From: an uncultured Halanaerobiales bacterium
GTDB lineage: Bacteria; Bacillota; Halanaerobiia; Halanaerobiales; M55B127
DNA length: 64,000 nt
NCBI GenBank assembly: GCA_964526845.1
Contig: CAZGMM010000001.1
Location: 1,970 to 65,969 of the forward strand
Direction of reading: 5' to 3'
Of the stretch, positions 38,220 to 63,190 are shown in pieces (position 1 is the first letter of the stretch; each line of letters starts with the position of its first letter). The notes beneath the pieces are model-generated. The model was not told the origin of the DNA and ran no database searches. It saw nothing but the letters and a program-made list of their open reading frames with translations. The position numbers and the translations under genes were made by a program.

Positions 38220-38266
38220 GCTATATGTATTATTCACAAATAAACTTTCTCAGGATGGTGAAATTG

Positions 38267-42436: not shown

Positions 42437-42458
42437 AATATAAAAAGGAGGCATTAAT

Positions 42459-42875
42459 GTGAATCCTCTCGAGCTTTTAAGAGACCCCAGTTTAGTGCAA
42501 TCGATGACCTTAAGTGAAAAGTTAATTTCGGGTCTACAGGTGGCTATATTAGGAATGGTAATAGTATTTTTTATACTATTTCTGTTAATGGTTGTCTTGA
42601 AGATACTTAAGAAGATCTTTTATTCAGAAAAGATGGACTTTAAAGAAGATTCAACCCAAATACAACCGAAAGTCCCTGATGTAGAACTTGAGTTAGATCA
42701 TAAAGAAGAAAAAGTAGCAGCTATTATGGCTGCCATAATGAGTCTTGAAGGTACAGGTGGAAAAAGCAAATTTAGAATAAGAAAGATTACAAGAGTTAAA
42801 GACGATGTGCCGATTTGGGGCCGAGTAGCCCGCGGCGGCGGAATATCAGAAAATAATAAAGGAGAGTTATTATGA
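42459..42875 (+). CDS. mmdD: OadG/MmdD-like small membrane-anchor subunit of a Na+-translocating decarboxylase
   Basis: Single N-terminal transmembrane helix and a VAAIMAAIM motif. GTG start follows AAGGAGG. Confidence 0.75.
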
Positions 42876-43303
42876 CTAGAAAATTTAAAGTAAAAGTTAA
42901 TGATGAATTATATGAAGTTGAAGTAGAAGAAGTCCAAAGTGAAGGTCAGACTGTAAGTACCCCAGAAACTCAAACTACTAAATCAGCTCCACAACCAAAA
43001 ACTAGTTCATCTGAAACCAAAAAGCAGAAACCAAAAACTACTTCTAAAGCTAAGAAGAAACCCAGAAAATCTGCCAGTCCGAGTGTAGGTAGTGGGACAG
43101 TAGAAGCTCCCATGACTGGTACAGTCTTGGAAGTTAAAGTGAATGAAGGCGACGAAGTAGCAAATGGAGACTTACTTTTGGTACTTGAAGCTATGAAGAT
43201 GGAAAATGAAGTATATGCACCAGCTTCTGGTAAGGTAACAGAGGTCAATGTAAGCGAAAATCAAAAAGTAGAAGCGGGCGAAGTATTAGTAGTTATAGAA
43301 TAA
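42872..43303 (+). CDS. mmdC: Biotin carboxyl carrier subunit
   Basis: C-terminal biotinyl domain with EAMKMENE, preceded by a Pro/Lys/Thr-rich linker. Confidence 0.9.
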
Positions 43304-43330
43304 GTCATAATATGTTAGGAGGTAAGAAAA

Positions 43331-44461
43331 TTGGTACAGGTTTTTATAGAATTTTTTAAAGGAACCGGGTTAATGGCTCTGGATATACCTCAGATAATTA
43401 TGATCATAATATCCTTAACCCTTTTATACCTTGGTATCGTAAAAAAATATGAACCCTTATTATTGGTACCGATAGCTTTTGGTATGCTTTTAGTGAATTT
43501 ACCGTTAACCAATTTGATGATTCATGCGGCAGACGGTAAACCGGCGGGACTATTTAGATATTTCTATATCGGAAATGCACTGGGCGTATTTCCACCCTTG
43601 ATCTTTATGGGGATCGGTGCGATGACGGATTTTGGACCTTTAATAGCTAACCCCAAAAGCCTATTATTGGGTGCAGCCGCTCAGTTTGGTATTTTCATAA
43701 CATTTTTAGGCGCCATTCTATTAGGGTTTACTGGACAACAGGCCGCACCGATTGGCATAATCGGCGGGGCTGATGGACCAACCGCAATTTATTTATCCGG
43801 GCAGTTAGCTCCCGAATATTTGGGTGCAATTGCAATTGCGGCCTATTCATATATGGCTTTAGTGCCGGTTATTCAACCACCGATAATAAAAGCATTAACC
43901 AGCAAAAAAGAAAGAAAAATAAAGATGCAGCAGTTAAGACCAGTTTCCAAAACAGAAAAAATATTATTCCCGATCCTGGTCACAATAGTAGTATTACTTT
44001 TACTACCAGATGCTGCTCCTTTAATTGGAATGTTGATGCTTGGTAATCTATTTAAAGAAAGCGGAGTTGTAGATCGCTTAAGTGAAACCGCACAAAATTC
44101 ATTAATAAATATAGTAACAATATTATTGGGAGTTGCCGTTGGTGCAAGTGCTTCAGCCGATAAATTTTTACAGGTAGACACAATCCAAATTTTAATTCTT
44201 GGAGTTGTAGCATTTTCCATAGGAACTACCACGGGAGTTATATTGGGTAAATTAATGAATAATTTCTCCTCCGATAAGATTAATCCTATGATCGGAGCTG
44301 CCGGTGTATCAGCTGTTCCGATGGCAGCTCGTGTAGTACAAAAGGAAGGTCAAAAAGCAGATTCATCTAACTTCCTTTTAATGCATGCCATGGGTCCTAA
44401 TGTAGCAGGAGTTATCGGTTCTGCCGTAGCTGCCGGTGTAATGATGTCAATCTTTGCTTAA
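43331..44461 (+). CDS. mmdB: Na+-translocating decarboxylase beta subunit (OadB/MmdB/GcdB family)
   Basis: 376 aa, polytopic membrane protein with GADGPTAIY and [15 protein letters not shown] blocks. TTG start follows AGGAGG. Confidence 0.9.
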
Positions 44462-44691
44462 GATAATATACAAAATATATGCTAAATATTTATGTAATAT
44501 TACAAAGGATTTTGTGATAGATATCAAGAAATTTGTTAAATAGTGCTAAAAAACGAAGAACCCATAAATTTTTTGAGCAGGCAGAGAGGGGTGGTATTGG
44601 ATAAGAGAGTTTTAAAGGTCTCACCCGTAACTTTGATTAAAAACAAACAAACCTAAACTTACAAAATAAAAATTTCAAGGAGGAATTAATA

Positions 44692-45420
44692 ATGTATAAG
44701 GAAAGTCCAGTTGAAGTATCTCAGGAAGAAATTACTTTTAAGGTAGAGGAGTTAGAACCATTTTTAAGTGCACCTCAATTAGACATGGCCACACCAAAGC
44801 CCTGTAAAATTGAATTAAAAGACGGTTCAACCATGTTGATTAGAGAAGTAAAAGATGAAGAAATTCCAATGTTATTAGACTATGTAAAGAAATTCATGGA
44901 AAAAGGTGCAAAAGACTTTTATGATATCGTAGGTGCGAGAATTTATGCCGAGCTATTAGGATATTTAAGAAAACGTCTAAAAGATCCTTATCTCTTTGTA
45001 GGAGCTATTGACGGTGAAGTTGTAGGTTTTGCTAACGGCCGTGTTAGAGATGAAGATGTGAACATTTCACTCCACACCATGGCCTTCAAAAGAGGTTTAA
45101 GAATTGGTGCTACACTTTATTATAGAAAAATGGTATATGCTCTTGAAGAACAAGGTAATAAAGAAATGTGGTCAACTTTTGAAAGCTATAATGGCTTCAA
45201 ACGTTGGGGAGTAGGTATGGCTCAACCTTCTTATCCATTCCCAGAATACCAACATGAATTAGGTGGAGCAAGAGTATTCTATGTTGATCAACAGTACTGG
45301 CATGCTGCCGTTAAAGACTATGTAAAACAAATAGTAGGTAATGACCTATCATTCGATGTTTCAGATGAACTTCTCGAGAAAAATGAAAACTTAGTTATGC
45401 CAGAAGGAATTAACATCTAA
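44692..45420 (+). CDS. Hypothetical protein with a GNAT-like acyl-CoA N-acyltransferase core
   Basis: 242 aa; ...VGAIDGEVVGFANGRV...HTMAFKRGLRIGATLYYRKM... resembles GNAT motif A (R/Q-x-x-G-x-G/A). Strong RBS AAGGAGG. Confidence 0.5.
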   Translation: MYKESPVEVSQEEITFKVEELEPFLSAPQLDMATPKPCKIELKDGSTMLIREVKDEEIPMLLDYVKKFMEKGAKDFYDIVGARIYAELLGYLRKRLKDPYLFVGAIDGEVVGFANGRVRDEDVNISLHTMAFKRGLRIGATLYYRKMVYALEEQGNKEMWSTFESYNGFKRWGVGMAQPSYPFPEYQHELGGARVFYVDQQYWHAAVKDYVKQIVGNDLSFDVSDELLEKNENLVMPEGINI

Positions 45421-45446
45421 ACAGAATAAGGAATAACTTGTAAAAA

Positions 45447-45488
45447 AATCCCCACTCTGAGAGTATATTTTGGGGTGGGGATTCTTTA
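45447..45488 (+). terminator. Intercistronic hairpin (weak terminator or attenuator) between the GNAT-like gene and fdrA
   Basis: AATCCCCAC / GTGGGGATT stem with a poor T tract. Only ~18 nt remain before the fdrA RBS, so read-through is likely. Confidence 0.4.
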
Positions 45489-45506
45489 AAAAGGAGTTGT
45501 TAATAT

Positions 45507-47060
45507 ATGGCTAAAAAAGCTTTAGTTAAAGAAGGTACCTATTTTGACTCTGTTACTTTGATGTCAATTTCAAAAGATATTAAAGATTTGGATGGAGTTA
45601 ATGAGGCTACTATTGTAATGGGTACTGACGCTAACAAAGAAATACTAAATACAGCTGGTCTATTAGTACCAGAAGCAGAAGCTGCCAAGCCTAACGATCT
45701 GGTAATTGTAATAGATGGTGAAGAAGAAGTACTGGATAAAGCAATTGAAAAAACAAATGAAAGGCTAGCAGAACAAAAAGCTTCCTCTGATGAAGAAGAG
45801 GAATATAATCCTGGTTCTTTGGATGGAGCTTTAGATGCACAACCAGATTCTAACTTAGTAATCATATCAGTACCGGGAGAATATGCAGCCCGTGAAGCCA
45901 GAAAGGCTTTAAAAAGAGGTCTGCATGTCATGCTGTTTAGTGATAATGTACCGGTGGAAGATGAAATCGAACTCAAAAAAATGGCAACCGAAAAGAACCT
46001 TCTTTTAATGGGTCCGGACTGTGGTACCTCCATTATAAATGGAGCACCCTTAGCATTTGCTAATGTTGTCAGCAGAGGGCCTGTCGGTATTGTAGCCGCC
46101 TCTGGTACAGGTGCCCAGGCTGTTTCTTCACTTGTTGACAGACAGGGAGTTGGACTCACCCAGGTAATTGGAACTGGTGGACGCGACCTTAAATCAAAGG
46201 TTAAAGGTATTGAAATGATCAAGGATATGAAAGCTTTAGATAGAGATGAAAATACAGAAGTAATTGTATTAGTTTCTAAACCACCGGCTAAAGAAGTATC
46301 TGAAAAGATCATGGATGAAGTTAAGAAGCTTTCCAAACCTGTAATTGTAAACTTCTTAGGCGGAGATCCCGCAGTTGTAGAAGGAACCGATGCTATGTGG
46401 GCAGACACTTTAGAAGATGCTGCCCTGAAAGCAGCCGCCTTTATCAAAGGTGAAGAAGAAGTTTCAGCTGCCGGTTTAACTGAAGAAGAAGTTGCAGAGA
46501 TTGCAGCAGAAGAAACTGCTAAAATGAGTGACGAACAGAAATATCTAAGAGGTCTTTATACAGGTGGTACTTTATGTAGTGAAGCCGTTATTCTCTTAAC
46601 TGAAAAATACGGAGATATGTACTCTAATATACCATTAAAAGATGAATTAGCCTTAAAAGAGGACCTTAAGAGTATTGAAAATACAGTTATTGACCTTGGG
46701 GAAGATGAGTTTACGAGAGGTAAACCTCATCCGATGATTGAACCTTCCTTAAGAAACGATAGATTGGTAAAAGAAGCTGAAGATAAAGAGATTGCTGTTG
46801 TACTTCTCGATGTTGTTTTAGGTTATGGTTCACACATGGACCCGGCGGGAGAAGTTGCAAAGGCAATTAAAGAAGCAAAAGAAAAGGTCGCTGAACGCAG
46901 CGGTTATCTATCAGTTATCGCTTCTGTATGCGGTACTGAAAAAGATCCTCAAAATCTTCAGGCACAGGAAGAAAAATTACGTCAGGTTGGAGCTAAAGTA
47001 CTCCCCACAAATGTTCAGGCTGTGCGCGTAGTAAGTAAAATTTTAAGTGATCTAAATTAA
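45507..47060 (+). CDS. fdrA: FdrA-family protein (succinyl-CoA-synthetase-alpha-like, CoA-binding)
   Basis: 517 aa; YFDSVTLMSIS, MLFSDNVPVEDEIELK, LLMGPDCGTSIINGAPLAFAN, VSKPPA, and GLYTGGTLCSEA...FTRGKPHPMIEP match E. coli FdrA as I recall it. Confidence 0.88.
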   Translation: MAKKALVKEGTYFDSVTLMSISKDIKDLDGVNEATIVMGTDANKEILNTAGLLVPEAEAAKPNDLVIVIDGEEEVLDKAIEKTNERLAEQKASSDEEEEYNPGSLDGALDAQPDSNLVIISVPGEYAAREARKALKRGLHVMLFSDNVPVEDEIELKKMATEKNLLLMGPDCGTSIINGAPLAFANVVSRGPVGIVAASGTGAQAVSSLVDRQGVGLTQVIGTGGRDLKSKVKGIEMIKDMKALDRDENTEVIVLVSKPPAKEVSEKIMDEVKKLSKPVIVNFLGGDPAVVEGTDAMWADTLEDAALKAAAFIKGEEEVSAAGLTEEEVAEIAAEETAKMSDEQKYLRGLYTGGTLCSEAVILLTEKYGDMYSNIPLKDELALKEDLKSIENTVIDLGEDEFTRGKPHPMIEPSLRNDRLVKEAEDKEIAVVLLDVVLGYGSHMDPAGEVAKAIKEAKEKVAERSGYLSVIASVCGTEKDPQNLQAQEEKLRQVGAKVLPTNVQAVRVVSKILSDLN

Positions 47061-47074
47061 GGGGGAGAGATAAT

Positions 47075-48499
47075 ATGACTAAGAAACTAGAAGATCTATT
47101 TAAAGAAGATTTAAAAGTAATAAATATTGGTCTAGAATCTTTTGCCGAAAACTTAAAAGATGAAGGATATGATGCAGTCCAGGTCGATTGGAGACCACCC
47201 GCAGGTGGAGACAAAGAAATGGCTGCCTTATTAGATGAAATAGAAAAATTAAGTGATAAGATCGAGAAAGCTAATCAAGAAGCTGTGGAAAGAATACAAA
47301 AGAGTGAACCAGTGGTGGTAGATGTTCAGACCGCCAGAGATGTTCTACCTAATTTCGAAGATAAAATGATTCTTCATGCTGCTCCTCCCGAAAAATGGGA
47401 AGACATGTCCGGACCGATGCAGGGTGCTGCAATTGGGGCCTGTATCTATGAAGGCTGGGCAGACGATGAAGAATCTGCCAGAACGATGCTGGATGCGGGA
47501 GAAGTAACATTTGATCCGGCTCACCATCATAATGCTGTAGGACCTATGACAGGTATTGTATCACCATCGATGCCGGTCTGGGTTGTTGAAAATAAGACCT
47601 ATGGTAATACAGCTTATACAACCTTAAATGAAGGTCTTGGCAAAGTTTTAAGATTTGGTGCAAATGGACCAGAAGTAATCGAAAAGTTAAAATGGATGGA
47701 AAAAACATTAGGTCCTGCTTTAGGTGAAGCATTACGTCAAACTGAAGAAGGTATTAACTTAAAGAATATCACTTCCCAGGCTTTACACATGGGAGATGAA
47801 GTTCATAATAGAAATAAAGCGGCCACTTCTTTATTTATCAGAGAAATTACACCTTACCTCTTACAAACCAGTTATGATAATGATACAATAAAAGAAATAA
47901 TTAAATTTATGGGTGGCAACGAACACTTCTATCTCAACTTATCCATGCCTGCTTCCAAAGCGACCATGGATGCTGCTCACGGAATTGAATACAGTACAGT
48001 ACTCACCGCAATGGCTAGAAATGGTGTTCACTTCGGCATCAGAGTAAGCGGCTTAGGTGATGAATGGTTCGTAGGGGAAGCTCAAAAAGTTGACGGACTT
48101 TACTTCCCGGGTTATACTGAAGAAGATGCCTGCCGTGACTTAGGTGACAGTACAATTTCCGAAACTGCTGCGGTTGGTGGTTTTGCAATGGCTGCTGCCC
48201 CAGCTATAGTAGGATTTGTGGGAGGTACTGTTTCCGATTCAATTAGATTTACAAAAGATATGTATGAAATTACAATCGATGAAAATGAAAACTTCACAAT
48301 TCCACCTCTTAACTTTAGAGGTACACCGACTGGTATTGATTTACTCAAGATAATTGAAACTGGTATTTTACCAGCAATTAATACCGGTATTGCTCATAAA
48401 GAACCCGGAATTGGACAGATTGGAGCAGGCTTAGTAGATCCTCCCGAAGCGTGCTTTAGAAAGGCAATTAGGGCTTTTGCCCAAAAATATACTAAATAA
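47075..48499 (+). CDS. ylbE: DUF1116 protein (E. coli YlbE-like) with an N-terminal extension
   Basis: 474 aa; LHAAPP..W.DMSGPMQGA, HHNAVGPM, LNEGLGKVLRFGA, FYLNLSM and NTGIAHKEPGIGQIGAG match YlbE blocks. Confidence 0.85.
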   Translation: MTKKLEDLFKEDLKVINIGLESFAENLKDEGYDAVQVDWRPPAGGDKEMAALLDEIEKLSDKIEKANQEAVERIQKSEPVVVDVQTARDVLPNFEDKMILHAAPPEKWEDMSGPMQGAAIGACIYEGWADDEESARTMLDAGEVTFDPAHHHNAVGPMTGIVSPSMPVWVVENKTYGNTAYTTLNEGLGKVLRFGANGPEVIEKLKWMEKTLGPALGEALRQTEEGINLKNITSQALHMGDEVHNRNKAATSLFIREITPYLLQTSYDNDTIKEIIKFMGGNEHFYLNLSMPASKATMDAAHGIEYSTVLTAMARNGVHFGIRVSGLGDEWFVGEAQKVDGLYFPGYTEEDACRDLGDSTISETAAVGGFAMAAAPAIVGFVGGTVSDSIRFTKDMYEITIDENENFTIPPLNFRGTPTGIDLLKIIETGILPAINTGIAHKEPGIGQIGAGLVDPPEACFRKAIRAFAQKYTK

Positions 48500-48514
48500 A
48501 AAGGAGAGATTTTA

Positions 48515-49273
48515 ATGAAATTATATGATTTAACTCAAAAGATAGGTGTTTCTACCCCACCATGGCCTACTTATGAACCTCTGGAACTGAAATATTTCAA
48601 GCGTCTTTCAACTGAAAGAGTAAATGGTCAGATTATTAAAACTAGTAATCACATAGGTACTCACTTAGATGGTGAAAGACACTTCTGGACAGCTGGTAGA
48701 GACATGGCTAGTATTCCTCTCGAAGATCTATTTGGAGACGGAGTTATCGTTGATTTAAGCGATGCAGTAGAAGACTATGATATCTATACATCAGAAATGA
48801 TTGAAGAAAGAGTAGACGTAAAAGAGGGCGACATCCTCATTATCAATACTGGTTACCACAAATATGGATGGGACCAGCCAGAAGCTGATGAAGAAAGATA
48901 CTTCATGAAACATCCTGGTCCAAATATGGAATTTGCTTATTGGGCCATGGAGAAAAAGCTAAAATGGATCGGTGTTGACTGTGGTTCTGCTGATCACCCA
49001 ATGAATACAGTTTGTAAAAAGTTAAGACCTGATCTTGCAAAAGAAGCAGAAGAACACCTGGGCGCACCATTAGATGAAGTATTTTCACACCCAGAAAGCA
49101 GACAGCTAATGCACACTAAGTTATTCCCAGAAGGAATTATCCACGCAGAAAATATTGGCGGCGAAATCGATAAGCTGCTCAACAAGAGATGTAAAATCGG
49201 ATTCTTCCCCTGGAAAGGTGTTGACTTAGAGTCCAGTATTGGACGAGCTGTTGCTTTTGTAGAAGAAGAGTAA
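48515..49273 (+). CDS. Cyclase-family metal-dependent amidohydrolase (kynurenine formamidase / isatin hydrolase-like fold)
   Basis: 252 aa with the family signature HIGTHLDGERH (HxGTHxDxxxH). Confidence 0.75.
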   Translation: MKLYDLTQKIGVSTPPWPTYEPLELKYFKRLSTERVNGQIIKTSNHIGTHLDGERHFWTAGRDMASIPLEDLFGDGVIVDLSDAVEDYDIYTSEMIEERVDVKEGDILIINTGYHKYGWDQPEADEERYFMKHPGPNMEFAYWAMEKKLKWIGVDCGSADHPMNTVCKKLRPDLAKEAEEHLGAPLDEVFSHPESRQLMHTKLFPEGIIHAENIGGEIDKLLNKRCKIGFFPWKGVDLESSIGRAVAFVEEE

Positions 49274-49289
49274 ATATAAATAATAGGAT

Positions 49290-49327
49290 GGAATCCTGCT
49301 TACCGCAGGGTTCCTTTCTTTACTTTT
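49290..49327 (+). terminator. Hairpin / terminator after the cyclase-family gene
   Basis: GGAATCCTGC / GCAGGGTTCC stem (one G-U pair) followed by TTTCTTTACTTTT. Confidence 0.55.
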
Positions 49328-49356
49328 AAATAAATACAATATATGGAGGTATATTA

Positions 49357-50289
49357 ATGAAATTAACTATCGCATTAGGTGGAAATGCAATATTACAACC
49401 AGGCCAGGACGGAACTGCTGAAGAGCAGTTTACCAATGTTTTATCTACAAGTGAACAAATCGGTCAACTGGTAAATGATGGACACGAAGTAGTTATAACA
49501 CATGGTAATGGCCCCCAAGTAGGTAATATCTTAATTCAACAGGATAAAGCAAGAGAATCTGTCCCAGCGATGCCTCTTGATGTTTGTGGTTCACAGACAC
49601 AAGGTTTTATTGGCTATATGTTACAGAACAGCTTGCATAATGTTTTTGCTGAATTAGGTTTAGATCGCAATGTAGCAACAGTTGTTACTCAGGTATTAGT
49701 TGATAAAGAAGATAGTGCTTTTGATAATCCTACAAAACCGGTAGGACCATTTTATGATAAAGAACATGCTGATCAGATGATGGAAGAAAAAGGCGAAAAT
49801 TGGATAGAAGATAGTGGCAGAGGCTGGAGGAAAGTTGTACCTTCCCCTATCCCAGAAAAAATTATAGAAGCTCCCGTAATTAACGATCTAGTAAGAAATG
49901 GAGAAATAGTAATTGCCTCTGGAGGTGGCGGAATTCCAGTTGTAGAAGAAGACAATAAAATTCATGGTGTAGAAGCAGTAATCGATAAAGATAGGGCCGG
50001 CTGTCTTTTAGCCGAAGAAATAGATTCTGACATTTTCTTGGTATTAACTGATGTTTCTAACGCATATATTAATTATGGCGAAGAAGATGAAGAAGCTATT
50101 GGAGAAATTAGTGTTGAAGATATGGAAGAGCATATTGAGAAAGGTCATTTTGGCGAAGGTAGTATGAAGCCAAAAGTACAGGCTGCTGTAGACTTCGTTG
50201 AAAACGGTGGAGACATGGCCATCATAACTTCTATAGAAAAGGTAATAGAAGCTGTGCACGGTGATGCAGGTACAAGAATTACCAAATAG
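49357..50289 (+). CDS. arcC: Carbamate kinase
   Basis: 310 aa; ALGGNA N-terminus, THGNGPQVG, IASGGGGIPV. Confidence 0.93.
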   Translation: MKLTIALGGNAILQPGQDGTAEEQFTNVLSTSEQIGQLVNDGHEVVITHGNGPQVGNILIQQDKARESVPAMPLDVCGSQTQGFIGYMLQNSLHNVFAELGLDRNVATVVTQVLVDKEDSAFDNPTKPVGPFYDKEHADQMMEEKGENWIEDSGRGWRKVVPSPIPEKIIEAPVINDLVRNGEIVIASGGGGIPVVEEDNKIHGVEAVIDKDRAGCLLAEEIDSDIFLVLTDVSNAYINYGEEDEEAIGEISVEDMEEHIEKGHFGEGSMKPKVQAAVDFVENGGDMAIITSIEKVIEAVHGDAGTRITK

Positions 50290-50320
50290 TTTGAGATAAC
50301 GATGGAGGTGAACTATATTA

Positions 50321-51178
50321 ATGATGCTTAGTAAATTTGAGTATTTCAAGCCTAATAGCTTGGAAGAAGTATTTGAATTATTGGACACACAAGAAGGCGA
50401 ATACGCCTTATTAGCCGGCGGAACAGACTTATTTGTAGACATGAAACATAAAACTAGAAAACCTGATTATATTATTGATGTTAAAGGTATTGATGAGTTT
50501 AATAAAATTGAAGATAGAGATGATGAAGTGTTTATAGGCGGAACCATAACCTGTAATGAAATTATTGACAGTGAACTGATGAATGAAAACTTCAAAGTAC
50601 TAGTAGATGCTGCTTCCGAAGTAGCCGCTCATCAGGTTCGTAATAGAGCAACAGTTGTAGGAAACTTATGTACCACTTCACCCGGTGCTGATATGTTCCC
50701 ACCTTTATTAGTTCTTAACACAAAAGTTATAGTGGAAAGTAAAGAGGGGAGCAGAGAGATTCCTTTAGATCAATTTGCGACCGGAGTAAAACAAAATGCT
50801 TTACAAGATAAAGAAGTTGTGAAAGGCCTATTAGTAAAGAAACATGCTGCAGATGGAAGAGGAGCCTATATTAAGAAAAGAAGGACAAAAGGTCCGGACT
50901 TAAGTGCTGTAGGTGTAGCAGGATTTTTATCAGAAGAAGAAGGTTATCTTGCTTTTGCACTAGGTGCAGTTGCTCCAACTCCAATCTATCTCGATGTTAG
51001 TGATACATTCTTTAGTGATGGTTCTTTTGAAGAAAAACAGGATAAAATATTAGATACTATTTTAGAAAATATTAATCCTATCGATGATGTAAGAAGTACA
51101 AAAGAGTATAGAAAGAAGATGTCTCAAGTATATGCCAGAAGAATTCTTTCCAGATTATGGGAAGCAGGTGATAAATAA
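50321..51178 (+). CDS. Molybdenum hydroxylase FAD-binding (medium) subunit
   Basis: 285 aa of CoxM/XdhB type; LLAGGTDL motif. Confidence 0.88.
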   Translation: MMLSKFEYFKPNSLEEVFELLDTQEGEYALLAGGTDLFVDMKHKTRKPDYIIDVKGIDEFNKIEDRDDEVFIGGTITCNEIIDSELMNENFKVLVDAASEVAAHQVRNRATVVGNLCTTSPGADMFPPLLVLNTKVIVESKEGSREIPLDQFATGVKQNALQDKEVVKGLLVKKHAADGRGAYIKKRRTKGPDLSAVGVAGFLSEEEGYLAFALGAVAPTPIYLDVSDTFFSDGSFEEKQDKILDTILENINPIDDVRSTKEYRKKMSQVYARRILSRLWEAGDK

Positions 51179-51651
51179 TGAAAACCATTAATTTAACAGT
51201 TAACGGTAGAAATTTTGAATTAGAAGTACAGGACAATGAAATACTTCTCGATACCTTAAGAAAGCAGCTTAACTTCACTGGTGCAAAAGAAGGCTGTGGA
51301 GAAGGCGAATGTGGTGCTTGTACCGTCATTATGGACGGAGAAGCAGTAACAAGCTGTCTCATTTTGTCGGTAGAAGCAGACGGATCTGAAATAGAAACAA
51401 TTGAAGGACAATCAATAGGTGAAGACATTAGTGATATCCAGGAAGCATTTATCGAAGAAAATGCTATCCAATGTGGTTTTTGTACTCCTGGTATGGTAAT
51501 GTCTGCAAAAGCCTTACTAGATAGAAATCCAAATCCAACCGATGAAGAAATCGATATAGCTCTCTCAGGTAATATCTGCCGCTGTACAGGATATTATTCA
51601 ATTAGAGAAGCAGTAAAACGTGCAGCTGAAAAGAGGGGAGGTAACAAATAG
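51178..51651 (+). CDS. Molybdenum hydroxylase [2Fe-2S] (small) subunit
   Basis: GCGEGECGACTV, QCGFCTPG and CRCTGY motifs. Its start overlaps the upstream stop. Confidence 0.93.
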   Translation: MKTINLTVNGRNFELEVQDNEILLDTLRKQLNFTGAKEGCGEGECGACTVIMDGEAVTSCLILSVEADGSEIETIEGQSIGEDISDIQEAFIEENAIQCGFCTPGMVMSAKALLDRNPNPTDEEIDIALSGNICRCTGYYSIREAVKRAAEKRGGNK

Positions 51652-53975
51652 TGACTGAAGAAATGATTGGAAAAAGTGTTAAGAGAATTAAAGCTTTAGA
51701 AAAAGTAACAGGTGAAGCTACTTTTGTTCACGATATGGAAGTTCAGGGTATGCTCCATGCGAAAATGAAGTTAAGTCCCCATGCCCATGCTAAAATAGTC
51801 AATATAGATACTTCTGAGGCTGAAAAACTGCCCGGTGTATGGTCTGTATTAACCGGTAAGGATCTACCATATAAAGTTGGACTATACCTGGTTGATAAAG
51901 ATATATTAGCAGTTAATAAGGTAAGATACCAGGGTGAACCGGTAGCAGCAGTTGCAGCTGAAACTGAAGAAATTGCGGAAAAGGCAGTTGAATTAATAGA
52001 TGTTGAATATGAAGAATTAGAGGCAGCCTTAGATGTAAAAGAAGCTGCCAAAGAAGATGCCCCATTAGTACATGAAAACTTGGGTGAATTAGAGAGTGCC
52101 CCCGTTTTCTTCCCAAAACCAGGTACTAACATTGCTCACCATACTAAGATAAGAAAAGGTGATGTTGATAAAGGTTTTGAAGAAGCAGACTATATTGTAG
52201 AAAACGAATTTGAGTTACCAATGGTAGACCACACCGCAATGGAAACACATACTTCCATTGCACAGTGGAAAAAAGGTAAGAAGGTACAAATATGGACTTC
52301 TGCTCAGTCTCCCTTTGCTGTTAGAAACTTACTGGCAAATGGTTTACATTTAAACCATGAAGATATAGAGGTTAGAGTTCCTTATGTAGGCGGTGGATTC
52401 GGTGGTAAAGCCGGTATTCACTTTGAACCTCTGGTTACCTGCCTATCGAGAGCCTCTGATGGTAGACCCGTCAAGATTGTAATGTCTAGAGTACAGGAAT
52501 TTAACTCTGTACCCGTAAGACAGGGACTTTATTCCAAACTGAAAACTGGTGTCACCAAAGATGGTAAAATTGTTGCCCAGGAATCTGAATTCCTCTGGGA
52601 CAGTGGTGCTAACGCCGACTATGGTGTAAATGTAACAAGAGCAGCCGCTACTGCGGGAGCTGGTCCATATGAAATAGAAAATGTAAAACTGGATTCAAAA
52701 ACAGTCTATACAAACAAGATATTCGGTACAGCCTATAGAGGCTTCGGACACTTAGAGATCCTTTGGGCTGTTGAAAGACAGATGGACTTAGTGGCAGAAG
52801 AAATTGGGATGAGTCCATATGATATTAGAATGAAAAACGGCCTAAGAAGAGGCTCTGTAACTATTACCGGTGAACATATTGGTGATTCACACGGTAAAGT
52901 ATTAGAATGCCTTGAAAGGGTTGCAGAAGAAATAGATTATGATAATAGGGGTTCAGACGATCTACCGGAAGGTAAAAAACGCGGTAAGGGCTTGGCCTTA
53001 TTACACAAGGCGCCCGCGATGCCTACTAATACAGGTACGGCCGCCTTCCTTAAGTTCAATGAAAACGGCACCTTAAACTTAACTGTGTCCTTAGTTGACT
53101 ATGGTCAGGGAACCTATACAGCCCTGGCTCAAATCGTATCAGATCAGCTTGATATCCCAGTTGATAAGGTAAATGTTGTTTGGGAGCAAAATACTGATAC
53201 TAAGCCTTATGACTGGCAGACAGTTGCTTCTAAAGGACTCTTTATGTCCGGTAATGCAACAATTAAGGCCTGTGAAGATATGGCCCAACAACTAAAAGAA
53301 GTGGCATCTGAACCATTAAGATGTTCAGTTGAAGATCTAATTATCGAAGATGAAAAGGTAAAAATTAGACACCACCCCGATAAGTATATAACCTTTGAAG
53401 AACTAGCAATGGGTTATACTTATCCCAACGGTAATGCAATTGGTGGACCCCTAGTAGCAAGAGGTAACTATATTGCCCAGGGTCTAACCAATATCGATCC
53501 AGAAACAGGTCAGGGACTACCGGCCTTAGACTGGACCTATGGTGCCCATGGTGTAGAAGTTATCGTAGATGAAGAGACCGGGGAATTAAATGTAGTTAAG
53601 ATTGCTTCCGCCTTTGATGCTGGTAAAGTAATTAATGAAAAGAATGTTATCGGTCAAATTGAAGGTGGTGTAATTCAGGGTTATGGTTCTGCCGTGATGG
53701 AAGGTTACCAGTTCAGTGAAGACGGCCGATTATTGACCAATAGCTTTACTGATTATAAGGTACCTACTATTGCAGATATTCCAGAACTCACACCTATTAT
53801 TGTAGAAAATGCTCAGGAAGACGGTCCTTACGGGGCCCGCGGTGTAGCAGAACATCCCATGCTTTCTGTACCTTCTGCAGTAGGTAATGCTGTTCAGGAT
53901 GCAATCGGTGTTCACATTAAAGAAATGCCGGTCATTCCTGAAAAAATCTTCGAATTAATTCAAAAAGAAAAATAA
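51651..53975 (+). CDS. Molybdopterin-binding (large) subunit of an XDH-family hydroxylase, substrate unknown
   Basis: 774 aa; GGGFGGKAG, AYRGFGH and GARGVAEHP blocks. The GTG start overlaps the upstream stop. Confidence 0.9.
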   Translation: MTEEMIGKSVKRIKALEKVTGEATFVHDMEVQGMLHAKMKLSPHAHAKIVNIDTSEAEKLPGVWSVLTGKDLPYKVGLYLVDKDILAVNKVRYQGEPVAAVAAETEEIAEKAVELIDVEYEELEAALDVKEAAKEDAPLVHENLGELESAPVFFPKPGTNIAHHTKIRKGDVDKGFEEADYIVENEFELPMVDHTAMETHTSIAQWKKGKKVQIWTSAQSPFAVRNLLANGLHLNHEDIEVRVPYVGGGFGGKAGIHFEPLVTCLSRASDGRPVKIVMSRVQEFNSVPVRQGLYSKLKTGVTKDGKIVAQESEFLWDSGANADYGVNVTRAAATAGAGPYEIENVKLDSKTVYTNKIFGTAYRGFGHLEILWAVERQMDLVAEEIGMSPYDIRMKNGLRRGSVTITGEHIGDSHGKVLECLERVAEEIDYDNRGSDDLPEGKKRGKGLALLHKAPAMPTNTGTAAFLKFNENGTLNLTVSLVDYGQGTYTALAQIVSDQLDIPVDKVNVVWEQNTDTKPYDWQTVASKGLFMSGNATIKACEDMAQQLKEVASEPLRCSVEDLIIEDEKVKIRHHPDKYITFEELAMGYTYPNGNAIGGPLVARGNYIAQGLTNIDPETGQGLPALDWTYGAHGVEVIVDEETGELNVVKIASAFDAGKVINEKNVIGQIEGGVIQGYGSAVMEGYQFSEDGRLLTNSFTDYKVPTIADIPELTPIIVENAQEDGPYGARGVAEHPMLSVPSAVGNAVQDAIGVHIKEMPVIPEKIFELIQKEK

Positions 53976-53995
53976 GCAGCAATAAATTGTAGATT

Positions 53996-54029
53996 AACCG
54001 CTGTCTGTAAAAAGGCAGCGGTTTTTTTA
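53996..54029 (+). terminator. Rho-independent terminator ending the catabolic block
   Basis: AACCGCTG / CAGCGGTT stem followed by T7. Confidence 0.75.
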
Positions 54030-54038
54030 ATGAATAAC

Positions 54039-54067
54039 TTGAAATTTTAATAAATTTCATTTATAGT
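54039..54067 (+). promoter_or_regulatory. Sigma-A type promoter for the P-loop/Asp23-fabG-acpP operon
   Basis: TTGAAA (54039-54044), 17-nt spacer, TATAGT (54062-54067). It overlaps the palindrome GAAATTT-n4-AAATTTC. Confidence 0.55.
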
Positions 54068-54101
54068 AAATTTAAGAATATTTTTTTAAGGGGTGTAGAT
54101 A

Positions 54102-54911
54102 TTGTATGTATATGCACTGGTAGGTGTCAGTGGCTCAGGAAAAAGCCATAGAGCGGCTTTTGTGGCCGATAAATATGATATCCCTCTAATACTGGATGAC
54201 GGCCTTCTAATCTATAAAGGACGCGTTTTAGCGGGTAAATCAGCAAAGAGGGATAAAAGAAAGATCCAGGCGATTCGGACTGCCATCCTACTAGAGGAAG
54301 ATCATTTAAATGAAATAAAAGAAGCCCTAAAGGATGTAAATGAAGATAAAATACTAATCTTAGGTACTTCAATGCGGATGATAGAAAGAATTGTTGCCAA
54401 TTTGGAATTGGATGGAATAGATGAAATTATAAAAATAAATGATATTGCAGAAGAAGATGAAATTAAAAGAGCAATTGATACTAGAAAAAATGAAGGTAAA
54501 CATGTAATACCGGTTCCTAAGATTGAAGTAAAATCAAGATTCCCCGGCTATTTTATTCATTCCCTTGAACTGTTTTTTGGCAAAGGCAAGGGCTCGATAA
54601 AAAAAGAGAAGACAATTGTGAGACCGAAATTTTCTTATTTTGGTAACCTAGTAATATACAACCATGTGATTCGGGATCTGATTTCTTTTGAACTTTCCAA
54701 AGAAAAGATTATAATAGAAGTAAATTCAATCCATATTGAAAAAGAAGATAATGAAATTTGTGTTAACATCGAAATTATATTAAAATATGGTGTAGAGATA
54801 GTTGAATACATAAATTCCCTGCAGGTAAAACTAAATGAATCAATTGAAAAGTTTACAGGACTTTATCTAGACAACTTGAATTTTTATGTTAGTTCCCTAT
54901 ATGTCGAATAA
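54102..54911 (+). CDS. Hypothetical fusion protein: N-terminal P-loop NTPase plus C-terminal Asp23-like domain
   Basis: Walker A GVSGSGKS at residues 8-15. The C-terminal ~100 aa resemble Asp23/Gls24 (GNLVIYNHVIRDLI...VNIEIILKYGVEIVEYINSLQVKLNESIEKFTG). TTG start follows AAGGGGTG. Confidence 0.55.
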   Translation: MYVYALVGVSGSGKSHRAAFVADKYDIPLILDDGLLIYKGRVLAGKSAKRDKRKIQAIRTAILLEEDHLNEIKEALKDVNEDKILILGTSMRMIERIVANLELDGIDEIIKINDIAEEDEIKRAIDTRKNEGKHVIPVPKIEVKSRFPGYFIHSLELFFGKGKGSIKKEKTIVRPKFSYFGNLVIYNHVIRDLISFELSKEKIIIEVNSIHIEKEDNEICVNIEIILKYGVEIVEYINSLQVKLNESIEKFTGLYLDNLNFYVSSLYVE

Positions 54912-54926
54912 TGAGGAGATGATAGC

Positions 54927-55670
54927 TTGTTACTCAAAGACCAGGTTGCTGTCGTAACCGGTAGTTCCCGCGGTATCGGGGCAGCTACTGCTATCAAACT
55001 GGCTGAAGAAGGCGCAGATGTTGTTGTAAATTATAATAATGATAAGGATAGTGCAGAACAGACAGCTCAAAAGATCAGAGACTTAGGTAGAAAAGCTTTA
55101 GTAATTCAGGGTAATGTGGCTGAGATGGATGACGCAAAAAATTTAATTAAATCGACTGTCAAAGAATTTGATAAAATTGATATTCTAATCAATAATGCCG
55201 GTATCACAAAAGACGGACTCCTTTTAAGAATGAAGGAAAAAGACTTTAATGATGTTATTAATGTAAATTTACAGGGTACTTTCAACTGTACAAAGCAGGC
55301 GATCCGTTACATGATGAAACAGCGTCATGGTAAAATAGTGAATTTAAGTTCTGTAGTTGGATTAATGGGTAATGCCGGACAGTCTAATTATTCAGCTTCT
55401 AAAGCAGGGATAGTCGGTTTTACTAAGTCGGTGGCAAGAGAAGTGTCCAAAAGGGGTATTAATGTAAATGCAGTCGCCCCCGGTTATATTAACACTGATA
55501 TGACAGAAGAACTTCCTGCTAAAGTAAAAGAAGATATGTTAAAAAATATTCCCTTAGATAGATTTGGTGAAGTAGAAGATGTGGCAAATGTAATAATGTT
55601 TTTGGTTTCTCCATTAGCTAATTACGTAAATGGACAAACTATAAATATCGATGGAGGAATGTTAATGTGA
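54927..55670 (+). CDS. fabG: 3-oxoacyl-ACP reductase
   Basis: TGSSRGIG, NNAG and YSASKAG motifs. TTG start follows GAGGAG. Confidence 0.93.
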   Translation: MLLKDQVAVVTGSSRGIGAATAIKLAEEGADVVVNYNNDKDSAEQTAQKIRDLGRKALVIQGNVAEMDDAKNLIKSTVKEFDKIDILINNAGITKDGLLLRMKEKDFNDVINVNLQGTFNCTKQAIRYMMKQRHGKIVNLSSVVGLMGNAGQSNYSASKAGIVGFTKSVAREVSKRGINVNAVAPGYINTDMTEELPAKVKEDMLKNIPLDRFGEVEDVANVIMFLVSPLANYVNGQTINIDGGMLM

Positions 55671-60727: not shown

Positions 60728-60862
60728 TTATTTGCCTTTTTGAAAAAAATATGTTATTTTATAAATATCTATGAGCAAGTAACATCAAGCTCATTTAGGG
60801 AAAAAAGTTGTTTAGGTGATTGTTGTACAGGTCTTGTTTTGTTGTTCTGGAAGGAGGTGAAG

Positions 60863-63190
60863 GTGCTGGAGATAATAACTACGGATGAGGCTGGCTTTTG
60901 TTTTGGAGTAAAAAGAGCTATAGAAATAGTAAAAGAGGCTGTTGCAAGCACCGAGAAAAAAGTTTATACTTTAGGTCCTTTAATACACAACCCACAAGTA
61001 GTCGAAGATTTAAGACAAAAGGGCGTATATTTAGCGGAAAGTATTGATGAGATCGATGATGGTATATTAGTCATCAGAACACATGGAGTAGAACCTAAAG
61101 TATTAGATAAAGCTCAGGAAAAGGGTTTAAATATTATAGATGCAACATGTCCCTTTGTCAAAAATGCTCATAAATATGCAAAAGAGCTGGTTGAAACAGG
61201 TTATCAAACCTTTATCTTCGGAGACAGAAACCATCCGGAAGTAAAAGGAATTTTCGGTCATACAGACAATAAGGGGATAATTATTGAATCTGTCGAGGAC
61301 ATACAAGAAATAGAACTTAGTGAAAACATCGGACTAGTTGCCCAAACTACCCAATCTTATGAAGATTATTTGAAAATAATAAGCTACTTATTACCAAAAG
61401 CAAAAGAACTTAAAATATTCAATACGATTTGTAATACGACGGGAAATCGACAGCAAGCTGCTAAAGAATTAGCCAAAAAGGTTGATGTGATGTATGTTAT
61501 TGGTGGACATAATAGTGCCAATACGAAACGTTTAGCAGAAATAAGTGCTAATACCGATACACCAACCTTTCACATAGAGACAGTTGATGAAATCAACTGG
61601 GAAAATATTAAAAATGTAAATAAAATTGGAATTACCGCAGGGGCATCGACCCCTGACTGGATAATCAAGGAGGTCTTGGAAATTATGTCTGAAGAAAAAA
61701 AAGAAGTTGAAGGAAAAGAACAGGAAGAATTAGAAGAGCAGGTAGAAGAACAGGTAGAAGAACCTACCGAAGAAGAAATTGAAAAAGAAGCAGAAGAAAT
61801 CGTAGAAGAAGCAAAAGAAGAAGTAGAGGAGGAAGAAGCCCAAGAAGAAACAGAGGAAGTTGAAGAAAAAGCAGAAGAACCTGAAGAAGAAGCAGAGGAA
61901 TCTGAAGAAGAAGCAGAGGAATCTGTTGAACCAGCTGCCGAAGCTGAAGAAAAAGTAGAAACAGAGGAAGCTGAAGAAGCAGCCGAGGAAGCTGAAGAAG
62001 AAAGCGAAGCTAAAGAATTCAATTACAGCGATAACGATATCGCTGATCTTAAAAAAGGTCAGAAAGTTACAGGTACTGTAGTAGAAATAAATGATGATGG
62101 AGTTTATGTGGATGTAGGATATAAAACAGACGGCTTTATTCCTAAAGAAGAACTTAACCATCGTAAAGTAAATGATCCACGCGATATAGTAGAAGAAGAT
62201 GAAGAGATTGAAGTTATCATCTTAACCCTAGAAAACGAAGAAGGAAATATGATTTTATCCAAGAAAAAGGCTGATTATGAAAAAGCCTGGGAAAGAATCA
62301 TAGAAGCTTATGAGAATGATGAAATAATTGAAGCAGAAGTTACAAAAGAAGTTAAGGGTGGTTTAGTTGTTGATGTAGGAGTTAGAGGATTTATTCCCGC
62401 TTCTCATGTTGCTGTTGGTTACGTTGAAGATCTCAGCAAATATGTAGGAGATACTCTTAGATTGAAAGTGATTGAAGTTGAAAGAGATAAAAATAATGTA
62501 GTTCTTTCTGCCAAAAAGGTTATCGAAGAAGAAAGGGCGGAAAAGAAAGAAGAAACTCTTGAAAACTTAGAAGAAGGCGATACAGTAAAAGGTACAGTAA
62601 CTAAGTTAGTAGACTTCGGTGCTTTTATCGACCTTGGTGGAATTGAAGGCTTACTTCACATTTCTGAAATGTCCTGGGGTAGAATCGAACATCCTTCTGA
62701 AGTATTAGACGAAGGAGAAGAAGTGGAAGTTAAAGTTCTGGGAGTAAATAAAGAAGACGAAAGAATTTCTCTCGGACTCAAACAATTAATGCCTGATCCC
62801 TGGGAAGAATTTGCCAGAAAGCATTATGAAGGAGAAAAGATTGAAGGTAAGATCACTAAGCTAGTAGACTTCGGTGCCTTTATGGAAGTTGCAGATGGTA
62901 TTGAAGGTCTTATCCATATTTCTCAATTATCACAAAAGCATGTCGAAACCCCGGATGAAGTAGTAGAAGCTGGCGAAACCCGCAAAGCTGAAATAATCAA
63001 TATAGATCCGGAACAAAGAAGAATTGGCTTAAGCCTTAAAGGTCTCGAAGGAAAACAAGAAAAAGAAGAAAAGAAAGAGAAAAAAGATAAGAAAAAACCA
63101 GAAGCTGAAGGTAAAGAAGAAGAAGAAACCTCTTCTGGTGCTACAATTCAGGAATTAGTAGGCGATATCTTCGATAAAGAAGAAGAATAA
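60863..63190 (+). CDS. ispH: Fusion protein: 4-hydroxy-3-methylbut-2-enyl diphosphate reductase (IspH) + acidic linker + four S1 RNA-binding domains
   Basis: The N-terminus GFCFGVKRAI...HNP and CPFV are typical of IspH. The C-terminal half has repeated S1 motifs (G.V..L..FGAF..). I prefer the GTG at 60863 (RBS AAGGAGG at 60851-60857) over the TTG at 60740. Confidence 0.88.
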   Translation: MLEIITTDEAGFCFGVKRAIEIVKEAVASTEKKVYTLGPLIHNPQVVEDLRQKGVYLAESIDEIDDGILVIRTHGVEPKVLDKAQEKGLNIIDATCPFVKNAHKYAKELVETGYQTFIFGDRNHPEVKGIFGHTDNKGIIIESVEDIQEIELSENIGLVAQTTQSYEDYLKIISYLLPKAKELKIFNTICNTTGNRQQAAKELAKKVDVMYVIGGHNSANTKRLAEISANTDTPTFHIETVDEINWENIKNVNKIGITAGASTPDWIIKEVLEIMSEEKKEVEGKEQEELEEQVEEQVEEPTEEEIEKEAEEIVEEAKEEVEEEEAQEETEEVEEKAEEPEEEAEESEEEAEESVEPAAEAEEKVETEEAEEAAEEAEEESEAKEFNYSDNDIADLKKGQKVTGTVVEINDDGVYVDVGYKTDGFIPKEELNHRKVNDPRDIVEEDEEIEVIILTLENEEGNMILSKKKADYEKAWERIIEAYENDEIIEAEVTKEVKGGLVVDVGVRGFIPASHVAVGYVEDLSKYVGDTLRLKVIEVERDKNNVVLSAKKVIEEERAEKKEETLENLEEGDTVKGTVTKLVDFGAFIDLGGIEGLLHISEMSWGRIEHPSEVLDEGEEVEVKVLGVNKEDERISLGLKQLMPDPWEEFARKHYEGEKIEGKITKLVDFGAFMEVADGIEGLIHISQLSQKHVETPDEVVEAGETRKAEIINIDPEQRRIGLSLKGLEGKQEKEEKKEKKDKKKPEAEGKEEEETSSGATIQELVGDIFDKEEE
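61739..61762 (+). repeat. Perfect tandem 12-nt duplication inside the acidic linker
   Basis: CAGGTAGAAGAA x2, encoding QVEE twice. Confidence 0.9.
61883..61924 (+). repeat. Perfect tandem 21-nt duplication inside the acidic linker
   Basis: GAAGAAGAAGCAGAGGAATCT x2, encoding EEEAEES twice. Confidence 0.9.

Follow-up and report, generated by a model that had tools for sequence, protein, structure and literature searches.

The subject of this report is a molybdenum-dependent hydroxylase encoded in a 64,000-nucleotide stretch of DNA (the window; positions 1,970 to 65,969 of contig CAZGMM010000001.1, assembly GCA_964526845.1) from an uncultured Halanaerobiales bacterium. The open reading frame (ORF) at 51651–53975 (+) translates into 774 amino acids (aa) and is, by its translation and Pfam matches, a complete large (Mo) subunit of the xanthine oxidoreductase (XOR) family. 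From the gene context and from chemical logic, we propose, with a probability of roughly 0.55, that the enzyme is a uracil/thymine dehydrogenase whose product, barbiturate, would be converted through ureidomalonate to carbamoyl phosphate and malonamate. A wider proposal is held more tentatively, at slightly less than even odds: the clade to which this subunit belongs would be the sequence-orphan uracil/thymine dehydrogenase and would, together with a cyclase-family "barbiturase," an AllFGH-type ureidomalonate phosphorylase, carbamate kinase, and a (methyl)malonyl-CoA module, define a widespread and undescribed fermentative pyrimidine route in which energy is conserved twice.

The Molybdenum Hydroxylase and its Clade

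The genes of the hydroxylase, and the segments of its Mo subunit to which we refer, are as follows.

50321–51178 (+): FAD-binding medium subunit, 285 aa (Pfam FAD_binding_5 and CO_deh_flav_C)
51178–51651 (+): [2Fe-2S] small subunit, 157 aa (Pfam Fer2 and Fer2_2)
51651–53975 (+): Mo-cofactor subunit of an XOR-family hydroxylase, 774 aa (translation, Pfam, alignments, AlphaFold2 (AF2) model)
52389–52412 (+): GGGFGGKA motif, whose final codon, GCC at 52410–52412, is Ala254 in the column of bovine Glu802 (alignments, homologs)
52620–52655 (+): predicted helix (residues 323–335) with Y324 (bovine L873), N327 (S876), R330 (E879), A331 (R880), and A335 (H884) (alignments, AF2)
52737–52751 (+): R363-G-F365-G-H367, equivalent to bovine R912-G-F914-G-G (alignments)
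53850–53855 (+): catalytic Glu734 (bovine E1261), followed by the clade-specific His735 (alignments)

The GTG start of the Mo gene overlaps the stop codon of the upstream gene, and its translation carries YVGGGFGGKAGIHFE, GTAYRGFGH, and YGARGVAEHP. Three Pfam domains, Ald_Xan_dh_C (hammerhead), MoCoBD_1, and MoCoBD_2, are present, and the FAD and [2Fe-2S] genes are adjacent in all 38 related loci flanked by 8 kb or more on each side, the set on which the linkage counts in this report are based. With these domains, these two neighbors, and a fold that matches every XOR-family structure in Foldseek at TM scores of 0.80–0.85, the protein falls within the XOR superfamily and, judging from domains and gene order, is the catalytic component of a hydroxylase with three subunits (Mo-pterin, FAD, 2Fe-2S).

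Its position inside the family is less conventional. The Mo subunit scored under every NCBIfam equivalog cut-off, the matches being XdhA_XDHase (the top score, 531 bits; cut-off 780), 4-hydroxybenzoyl-CoA reductase (4-HBCR) alpha (530; 994.55), PRK09970 (503; 916), pucD (456; 784), and xanthine_xdhB (TIGR02965; 350; 849.5); the 4-HBCR beta equivalog reached 118 bits against a cut-off of 404.55. The best solved relatives are 4-HBCR, quinoline 2-oxidoreductase (QOR), and CoxL, while bovine XOR is 26% identical. Because the TM scores are 0.80–0.85 to all of them, Foldseek cannot rank the nearest family member.

An enzyme of aromatic or pyridine rings, such as 4-HBCR, nicotinate dehydrogenase (NDH), or QOR, standing beside unrelated genes, would account for some of these matches: the 4-HBCR alpha subunit is the best full-length match in the PDB (339 bits, 33.5% identity, TM 0.84), NDH is the nearest over the active-site segment alone (99 bits), and QOR reads GGGFGQKA where the Mo subunit has GGGFGGKA. 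We regard this explanation as very improbable, since not only is the 4-HBCR equivalog missed by a wide score, but the FAD subunit also has two Cys in total and is without the 4-HBCR-type [4Fe-4S] insertion, the single 774-aa ORF spans both chains (3hrd_A and 3hrd_B) of the split NDH subunit, and no genes of benzoyl-CoA or nicotinate fermentation were recognized by Pfam in the cluster. In addition, the linkage to AllFGH-like and cyclase-family genes described below, found in 30 of the 38 loci over many phyla, is beyond chance.

The closest database proteins (94% identity) are from Halanaerobiales, and homologs with 55–62% identity, all bearing generic names, occur in Moorella, Thermoanaerobacteraceae, Clostridium, Sporomusa, Spirochaetota, Ignavibacteria, Sumerlaeota, Eisenbacteria, Hydrogenedentes, and others. 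The sequence FGGKAGIH was found in 120/120 homologs among the matches listed (55–100% identity), and a scan of one genome per species with this pattern plus PYDWQTVA gave at least 515 species genomes holding a clade relative, mostly those of anaerobes. A signature of 20 pocket and cofactor-shell sites was invariant in all members aligned, over 56–100% identity (Q219, A254, E259, Y324, N327, R330, A331, R363, F365, H367, E369, W372, K453-A-P-A-M-P458, E734, and H735). A neighbor-joining tree, the phylogenetic placement proposed in the first-pass annotation of this DNA, showed the clade to be monophyletic and separate from bovine XOR, E. coli XdhA and XdhD, 4-HBCR, and QOR. By alignment and tree, the Mo subunit belongs to a large, widespread, and uncharacterized clade of the XOR family.

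The first-pass annotation had also noted that the window has no XdhC-type maturation gene, and this observation stood: tblastn with the copies of a related cluster as queries gave no match at E ≤ 1 in the window for XdhC, YqeC, or MocA. XdhC is present in the clusters of some relatives (L003, L083), and YqeC, a marker of selenium-dependent hydroxylases, in that of one relative.

Active-Site Residues Compared with Bovine XOR

Residues 741–1285 of bovine XOR, taken from the PDB search, served as the reference, and the numbering was verified for Q767, E802, R880, H884, R912, F914, F1009, and E1261. The Mo subunit was aligned by MAFFT with this fragment, E. coli XdhA, 4-HBCR, QOR, and 11 homologs; in a second alignment, a profile hidden Markov model (HMM) of the clade was matched to the bovine fragment, which covers the Gln767, Glu802, and Arg880 regions and ends before the Glu1261 region.

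Ala254 occupies the Glu802 column in the MAFFT alignment and Gln219 that of Gln767, with which the HMM concurs, and Glu734 aligns with Glu1261 in the MAFFT alignment. The first-pass annotation had reported the loss of the Glu after GGGFGGK and the retention of the catalytic Glu in GARGVAEHP, and on both points it was correct. It had also read the Arg of AYRGFGH as bovine Arg880, which proved to be an error: according to the bovine sequence (AFRGFGG), MAFFT, and the HMM, this residue (Arg363) aligns with Arg912 instead, and Phe365 with Phe914. Arg912 is a cofactor-contacting Arg. Its equivalent is present in all aligned relatives, including 4-HBCR, QOR, and E. coli XdhA, but not in E. coli XdhD, and because the Arg is common to nearly every relative, the column carries no information on the substrate.

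The column of bovine Arg880 (SIMERALFH) is occupied by Ala331, and a clade-invariant Arg330 stands in the preceding column (bovine Glu879). This one-residue offset looks real because the surrounding segment, 20 residues from anchor to anchor, aligns ungapped in both proteins, with the same register in MAFFT and HMM. Both xanthine-binding residues, Glu802 and Arg880, are thus absent by alignment, and the corrected residue picture lies further from a xanthine enzyme than the first-pass annotation held.

The pair of Phe residues that sandwiches the purine is also incomplete. While Phe365 is kept, the column of Phe1009 is a gap in MAFFT, Pro455 in the HMM alignment, and matched to a bovine Ile in a third alignment, but never Phe; the equivalent loop is shortened to KAPAMPT, which contains no Phe. 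Moreover, bovine Pro1262 is replaced by His735. The catalytic set of the superfamily is kept (E734, Q219, R363, and G247–G252 of the GGGFG loop). In summary of the comparison with bovine XOR and Rhodobacter capsulatus xanthine dehydrogenase (XDH), the enzyme shares with them the fold (TM 0.80–0.85), the three redox modules, Gln767, the GGGFGGK loop, Arg912, Phe914, and Glu1261, whereas it differs from bovine XOR in overall identity (26%), at Glu802 (Ala254), at Arg880 (Ala331, the clade Arg standing one residue earlier), in having no Phe1009, and at Pro1262 (His735).

In the AF2 model of the Mo subunit (pLDDT 82), residues 323–335 form a predicted helix, on which Arg330 points ~100° off the face of Arg880 and ~60° from Asn327, the equivalent of the channel residue Ser876. 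According to this model, Arg330 might reach the pocket despite the offset. We also considered whether a nearby Glu fills the pocket, which the first-pass annotation had named as evidence against its view. The sole conserved candidate is E259, five residues on, which is also found in QOR, 4-HBCR, and E. coli XdhA; at the level of alignment it is therefore a family-wide feature, and the idea was set aside.

These replacements should be read with the other bacterial members in mind. The Glu802 column holds Gln in E. coli XdhA and XdhD, Ala in QOR, Leu in NDH, and Thr in 4-HBCR, while the Arg880 column holds Ala in XdhA, no Arg in XdhD, and Arg in NDH. According to PMC12507026, urate is formed from purines by E. 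coli XdhA through oxidation and is reduced by XdhD. By these alignments, the Glu802/Arg880 rule does not cover all purine-active bacterial members; because XdhA and XdhD are purine-linked without either residue, the absence of the Glu alone is insufficient to exclude purines, and by itself it would indicate simply that the enzyme is not of the eukaryote/Rhodobacter type.

The Conserved Gene Cluster

The genes of the three subunits stand last in a series of genes on one strand (36798–53975), the other members of which are listed here.

36798–38045 (+): NCS2 nucleobase permease, uracil (UraA) type (NCBIfam, NAT motif, identity to UraA)
38225–39940 (+): PucR-family transcriptional regulator (Pfam PucR, GGDEF_2, and HTH_30), also found in the Moorella and Clostridium clusters
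39924–40769 (+): AllH-like subunit (DUF2877; Pfam AllH, 80 bits)
40892–44461 (+): Na+-translocating (methyl)malonyl-CoA decarboxylase (Mmd) genes (Pfam; NCBIfam mmdA, 899 bits, cut-off 999; Na_pump_decarbB, 538 bits, cut-off 191), comprising carboxyltransferase (40892–42436), gamma subunit (42459–42875), biotin carrier (42872–43303), and beta pump subunit (43331–44461), all (+)
44692–45420 (+): p242, a conserved 242-aa GNAT-fold protein (AF2 and Foldseek)
45507–47060 (+): AllF/FdrA-like subunit (NCBIfam FdrA, 538 bits, cut-off 433; 38% identity to E. coli AllF)
47075–48499 (+): AllG-like subunit, a homolog of oxamate carbamoyltransferase (Pfam AllG, 326 bits; 47% identity to E. coli AllG)
48515–49273 (+): cyclase-family (PF04199) metal-dependent amidohydrolase, putative barbiturate ring-opener (Pfam Cyclase, 118 bits)
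49357–50289 (+): carbamate kinase, carbamoyl phosphate + ADP to ATP (NCBIfam arcC, 437 bits, cut-off 358; 39% identity to E. coli AllK)

A complete set of AllF, AllG, AllH, and carbamate kinase is therefore encoded beside the Mo enzyme. AllFGH is experimentally proven to be an oxamic transcarbamylase (oxalurate + Pi <-> carbamoyl phosphate + oxamate), partnered by the carbamate kinase AllK (PMC11326118). In the cyclase-family protein, the HxGTHxDxxxH motif is intact and lines up with the metal sites of kynurenine formamidase and 1r61.

This arrangement is widely conserved. Among the 38 loci, the Mo gene was linked to AllG in 30, the cyclase in 30, AllF in 28, p242 in 18, a thiolase plus DUF35 pair in 14, the permease in 12, and Mmd in 7 (Halanaerobiales, Spirochaetes, and Sporomusa). 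Clustering of ORFs over 80 loci added AllH (35), a MocA-like cytidylyltransferase (13), amidase-signature proteins (7), CoA-transferase III (6), and CN_hydrolase (4). Another ORF cluster, "u264," was rejected as a conserved neighbor, since in at least some loci it appears to be a shadow ORF antisense to the FeS gene. The gene order in Moorella thermoacetica is AllH-AllF-AllG-cyclase-FAD-FeS-Mo-permease-PucR, and genomes of Thermoanaerobacteraceae and Hydrogenedentes have the same gene set in other orders.

The permease points to the substrate. That of the Moorella cluster scored 650 bits against the uracil-permease equivalog cut-off of 477, shares 59% identity with E. coli UraA, and retains F73, E241, H245, and E290, which we take to be the uracil-binding residues of UraA. 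In the window, the top NCBIfam match of the permease is likewise uracil permease (392 bits, as against 223 for xanthine permease), its identity is 39.7% to UraA and 26% to XanQ, and F73, E241, and E290 are kept. Its NAT motif (ENTGVLAITK) has a Glu, as in 16/16 cluster permeases, where XanQ and UacT have Gln. Judging from these residues and scores, the cluster permease belongs to the uracil and not to the xanthine/urate type.

A second pointer comes from a Halanaerobium metagenome-assembled genome (MAG; L090 4751–22346, on a contig shared with L006), which contains two tandem FAD-FeS-Mo sets, both with the clade signature, and two cyclase genes. After the tandem sets follow genes for a methyl-accepting chemotaxis protein with a Bmp domain, an Asp23-like protein, an IclR regulator, a cytosine permease (codB; 438 bits, cut-off 326), a cytosine-deaminase-like (codA-like) amidohydrolase, and a third Mo hydroxylase. 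A genetic link of the Mo enzyme to the uptake or supply of uracil is thus present both in the cluster itself, through the UraA-type permease, and beside the cluster of a relative, through codB and the codA-like gene just downstream. These findings favor the suggestion of the first-pass annotation that the enzyme hydroxylates another N-heterocycle, such as a pyrimidine.

The same neighbors have to be weighed against a purine function, in which the Mo enzyme would be a divergent xanthine/hypoxanthine (or urate-reducing) dehydrogenase and the AllFGH homolog and carbamate kinase would handle oxalurate or another purine-derived ureide, as in the allantoin fermentation of E. coli. The top NCBIfam score of the Mo subunit (XdhA_XDHase), the PucR-family regulator, the fact that AllFGH is known solely from the purine/allantoin route, and the purine-linked E. 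coli XdhA and XdhD that lack Glu802 and Arg880 (PMC12507026) all speak for it. Nevertheless, we find it improbable. All XDH equivalog scores are far under their cut-offs, the neighbor-joining tree separates the clade from XdhA and from XdhD, and the transporter is of the uracil type, without the Gln that the xanthine/urate type has in the NAT motif. The enzymes of the allantoin pathway that would supply oxalurate (allantoinase, allantoate amidohydrolase, ureidoglycine hydrolase, and ureidoglycolate dehydrogenase) were found neither in the window nor in the Moorella, Thermoanaerobacteraceae, and Hydrogenedentes clusters. Finally, the known purine routes leave no place for a biotin-dependent (methyl)malonyl-CoA decarboxylase. 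The pathway of the xanthinase gene cluster, which reportedly ends in glycine and formiminoglycine, probably does not overlap with the present one, as these products do not fit a malonyl-CoA module. The view of the first-pass annotation that this is not a canonical xanthine dehydrogenase is upheld by the absence of both purine-binding residues, the scores below every equivalog cut-off, and the separate monophyletic clade.

A Proposed Route from Uracil to Carbamoyl Phosphate and (Methyl)malonyl-CoA

In the route that we propose for the uracil/thymine dehydrogenase, uracil would be taken up by the UraA-type permease and hydroxylated by the Mo enzyme at C6 to give barbiturate, and thymine would give 5-methylbarbiturate. 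Mo hydroxylases attack a ring C–H adjacent to nitrogen, and C6 is the expected site because it bears the only C–H of the uracil ring that is next to a nitrogen. Catalysis would depend on Gln219 and Glu734, the latter presumably serving, as in established enzymology, as the base at the Mo=O/OH center, while the purine set Glu802/Arg880/Phe1009 would be replaced by Ala254, Tyr324, Asn327, Arg330, His367, Pro455, and His735. Electrons would exit through the FeS and FAD subunits. The cyclase-family metal hydrolase would then open barbiturate to ureidomalonate, an N-acylurea one CH2 longer than oxalurate, and the AllFGH-like enzyme would cleave ureidomalonate phosphorolytically to carbamoyl phosphate and malonamate. 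From carbamoyl phosphate, carbamate kinase would form ATP, as expected from established enzymology. The remaining C3 amide would be converted to (methyl)malonyl-CoA, a step in which p242 may act here and an amidase plus CoA-transferase in relatives, and (methyl)malonyl-CoA would be decarboxylated by the Na+-pumping decarboxylase. Energy would thus be gained twice, once as ATP from carbamoyl phosphate and once from the C3 fragment, as a Na+ gradient or acetyl-CoA. The pathway, if real, would be a new combination of known enzyme types; a literature search found no paper on this cluster or on an anaerobic barbiturate route, most subscription journals being outside its reach.

The C3 module is encoded in the middle of the cluster, where the four genes of the Na+-pumping decarboxylase separate the allH-like gene from the allFG-like genes. 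Clade Mo genes are adjoined by Mmd genes in Spirochaetes (L015, L046, and L055) and in Sporomusa (L041) as well, while other loci have amidase and CoA-transferase III variants, and in many genomes (14/38 loci; e.g., L001 15898–18103 and L007 6701–8939) p242, thiolase, and DUF35 (OB_ChsH2) stand in the decarboxylase's stead. The presence of a (methyl)malonyl-CoA decarboxylase in the operon makes sense because the C4-C5-C6 fragment would be malonyl from uracil and methylmalonyl from thymine.

No family in Pfam or NCBIfam matches the p242 protein above threshold. It is 41% identical to cluster proteins of Moorella and Hydrogenedentes and has 1310 homologs at E ≤ 1e-5, with ~60% identity across distant phyla, often beside the Mo/AllFGH cluster. 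All Foldseek matches of its AF2 model are GNAT acyltransferases, and going by this model p242 probably binds acyl-CoA. The relative L008 has no p242 and carries CoA-transferase III and CN_hydrolase genes after its Mo gene, while in the window p242 is present and both of these genes are missing. Because of this swap and of the GNAT fold, we suspect, as a matter of speculation, that p242 substitutes for the CoA-transferase III plus CN_hydrolase pair of L008.

Several observations weigh against the proposed uracil/thymine route. Mo genes without AllFG or the cyclase nearby were found in 8 of the 38 well-flanked loci. No Pfam family of an AtzD-type barbiturase or of a hydrolytic ureidomalonase occurs among the cluster proteins, and because a homolog of the AtzD-family barbiturase is lacking from the cluster, the ring-opening role of the cyclase-family enzyme is a guess. 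The window permease is under the uracil-permease cut-off (392 against 477 bits) and has Asp for H245. In the Halanaerobium MAG, codB and the codA-like gene share their operon-like run with the third Mo paralog (40% identity; S254, H327, T330, and Y365), which could itself be the uracil enzyme. The p242 gene also stands alone, away from such a cluster, in the Caldisericia genome L089.

Some of these points would be explained if the substrate were another nucleobase-like N-heterocycle, such as a substituted or modified pyrimidine or a cyclic ureide precursor, imported by the UraA-like carrier and still yielding an N-acylurea for the AllFGH-like enzyme. The conserved set of Mo enzyme, cyclase, AllFGH, and carbamate kinase dictates what kind of chemistry takes place but does not single out one substrate; the deviations of the window permease, the different Mo paralog that accompanies codB and the codA-like gene, and the two tandem clade paralogs with two cyclases in the Halanaerobium MAG, which suggest more than one substrate, agree with this explanation. 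We consider it unlikely, though deserving serious thought. The Moorella permease scores above the uracil-permease equivalog cut-off and has every uracil-site residue, the pocket signature is invariant clade-wide, including both tandem paralogs, which argues for one substrate class, and a malonyl/methylmalonyl-CoA decarboxylase fits C4-C5-C6 of uracil or thymine.

Comparison with Known Systems

The proposed steps from uracil to barbiturate and ureidomalonate are those of the aerobic oxidative pyrimidine pathway (Rhodococcus, Mycobacterium, and Corynebacterium; EC 1.17.99.4). The purified uracil/thymine dehydrogenase of Rhodococcus is reportedly a Mo/FAD/FeS heteromer, and to our knowledge no sequence has been assigned to EC 1.17.99.4, which is defined by activity alone. 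The route proposed here would differ in that the ring is opened by a cyclase-family enzyme and not by an AtzD-type barbiturase, and in that the ureide is cleaved by phosphorolysis with a gain of ATP, whereas it is hydrolyzed there to urea and malonate; the hosts here are anaerobes.

AllFGH and AllK of E. coli resemble the present system in having three subunits plus a carbamate kinase and in the proposed reaction of an N-acylurea with Pi to carbamoyl phosphate and an amide, followed by ATP formation. They differ from it in sequence (38% identity for AllF and 47% for AllG, with the AllH of the window seen by Pfam alone) and in the proposed substrate, which would be one carbon longer (ureidomalonate versus oxalurate). 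Unlike the E. coli allECD-allFGHK genes, those of the window have no allB, allC, allD, or allE nearby; their neighbors encode a Mo hydroxylase, a hydrolase of the cyclase family, and a permease of the uracil type.

The nearest solved relatives are NDH of Eubacterium barkeri (3HRD), 4-HBCR of Thauera (1RM6), and QOR of Pseudomonas (1T3Q), all of which are without Glu802. Like them, the present enzyme presumably uses the bacterial dinucleotide form of the Mo cofactor, and MocA-like genes adjoin 13 related loci. The Mo subunit is 30–34% identical to 4-HBCR and QOR. NDH differs from it by the Arg in the Arg880 column and by a Mo subunit split into L (~425 aa) and M (~330 aa), 4-HBCR by an additional [4Fe-4S] cluster in the FAD subunit and by working reductively, and all three by having no linkage to AllFGH, a cyclase, or a uracil permease.

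E. coli XdhA and XdhD (L005 2346–4604; L092 6317–9187) are comparable as XOR-family nucleobase enzymes of a facultative anaerobe, with Gln for Glu802 and without Arg880. They differ from the clade in their separate tree branch, different pocket, and neighbors (ygeW/ygeX/ssnA/ygfK), the identity of the Mo subunit to XdhA being 29%.

Anaerobic pyrimidine breakdown is currently explained by the reductive (Pyd) route, and we know of the oxidative barbiturate route from aerobes only. If the proposed route is true, the orphan EC 1.17.99.4 would gain a sequence, the cluster found in at least 515 species genomes over many anaerobic phyla would gain a function, and AllFGH-type transcarbamoylases would gain a second physiological substrate. 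Pyrimidines from nucleic acids would then be a plausible source of energy, beyond nitrogen, in anoxic sediments, hypersaline mats, and digesters. For annotation and mutagenesis, the invariant residues of the pocket (Ala254, Tyr324, Asn327, Arg330, His367, and His735) offer a direct handle.

Operon Borders and Flanking Genes

The operon is closed by one further feature.

53996–54023 (+): strong terminator-like hairpin, 21 bases past the stop codon of the Mo gene

Terminator-like hairpins also occur within the gene run, at 49290–49314 in the gap between the cyclase and carbamate kinase genes and at 38111–38135 after the permease gene, so that the island may be split into several transcription units, or these hairpins may be attenuators.

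The island from the permease to the Mo subunit (35954–54927) lies within a fatty-acid-synthesis operon. On one side, fabF ends at 35954 and is followed by a terminator at 35971–36004; on the other, fabG starts at 54927 and is followed by rnc. The island occupies the same site in L008, a relative with 91% identity. A foreign origin of the island was considered and set aside, as the GC content is 0.31–0.41 throughout, without a clear break.

Between the fabF terminator and the permease gene lies a 160-aa ORF (36028–36510, −), the sole candidate for a gene on the opposite strand in the island. Directly after the Mo operon, at 54102–54911, is an ORF of 269 aa that begins with a P-loop-like segment (GVSGSGKS) and has an Asp23 domain at its C-terminus; its position is kept in Halanaerobiales relatives (L008, and an Asp23 gene in L090). 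Further downstream, an 816-aa ORF (60740–63190) appears by eye to join an IspH/LytB domain and ribosomal-protein-S1 repeats by a long, Glu-rich, low-complexity linker.

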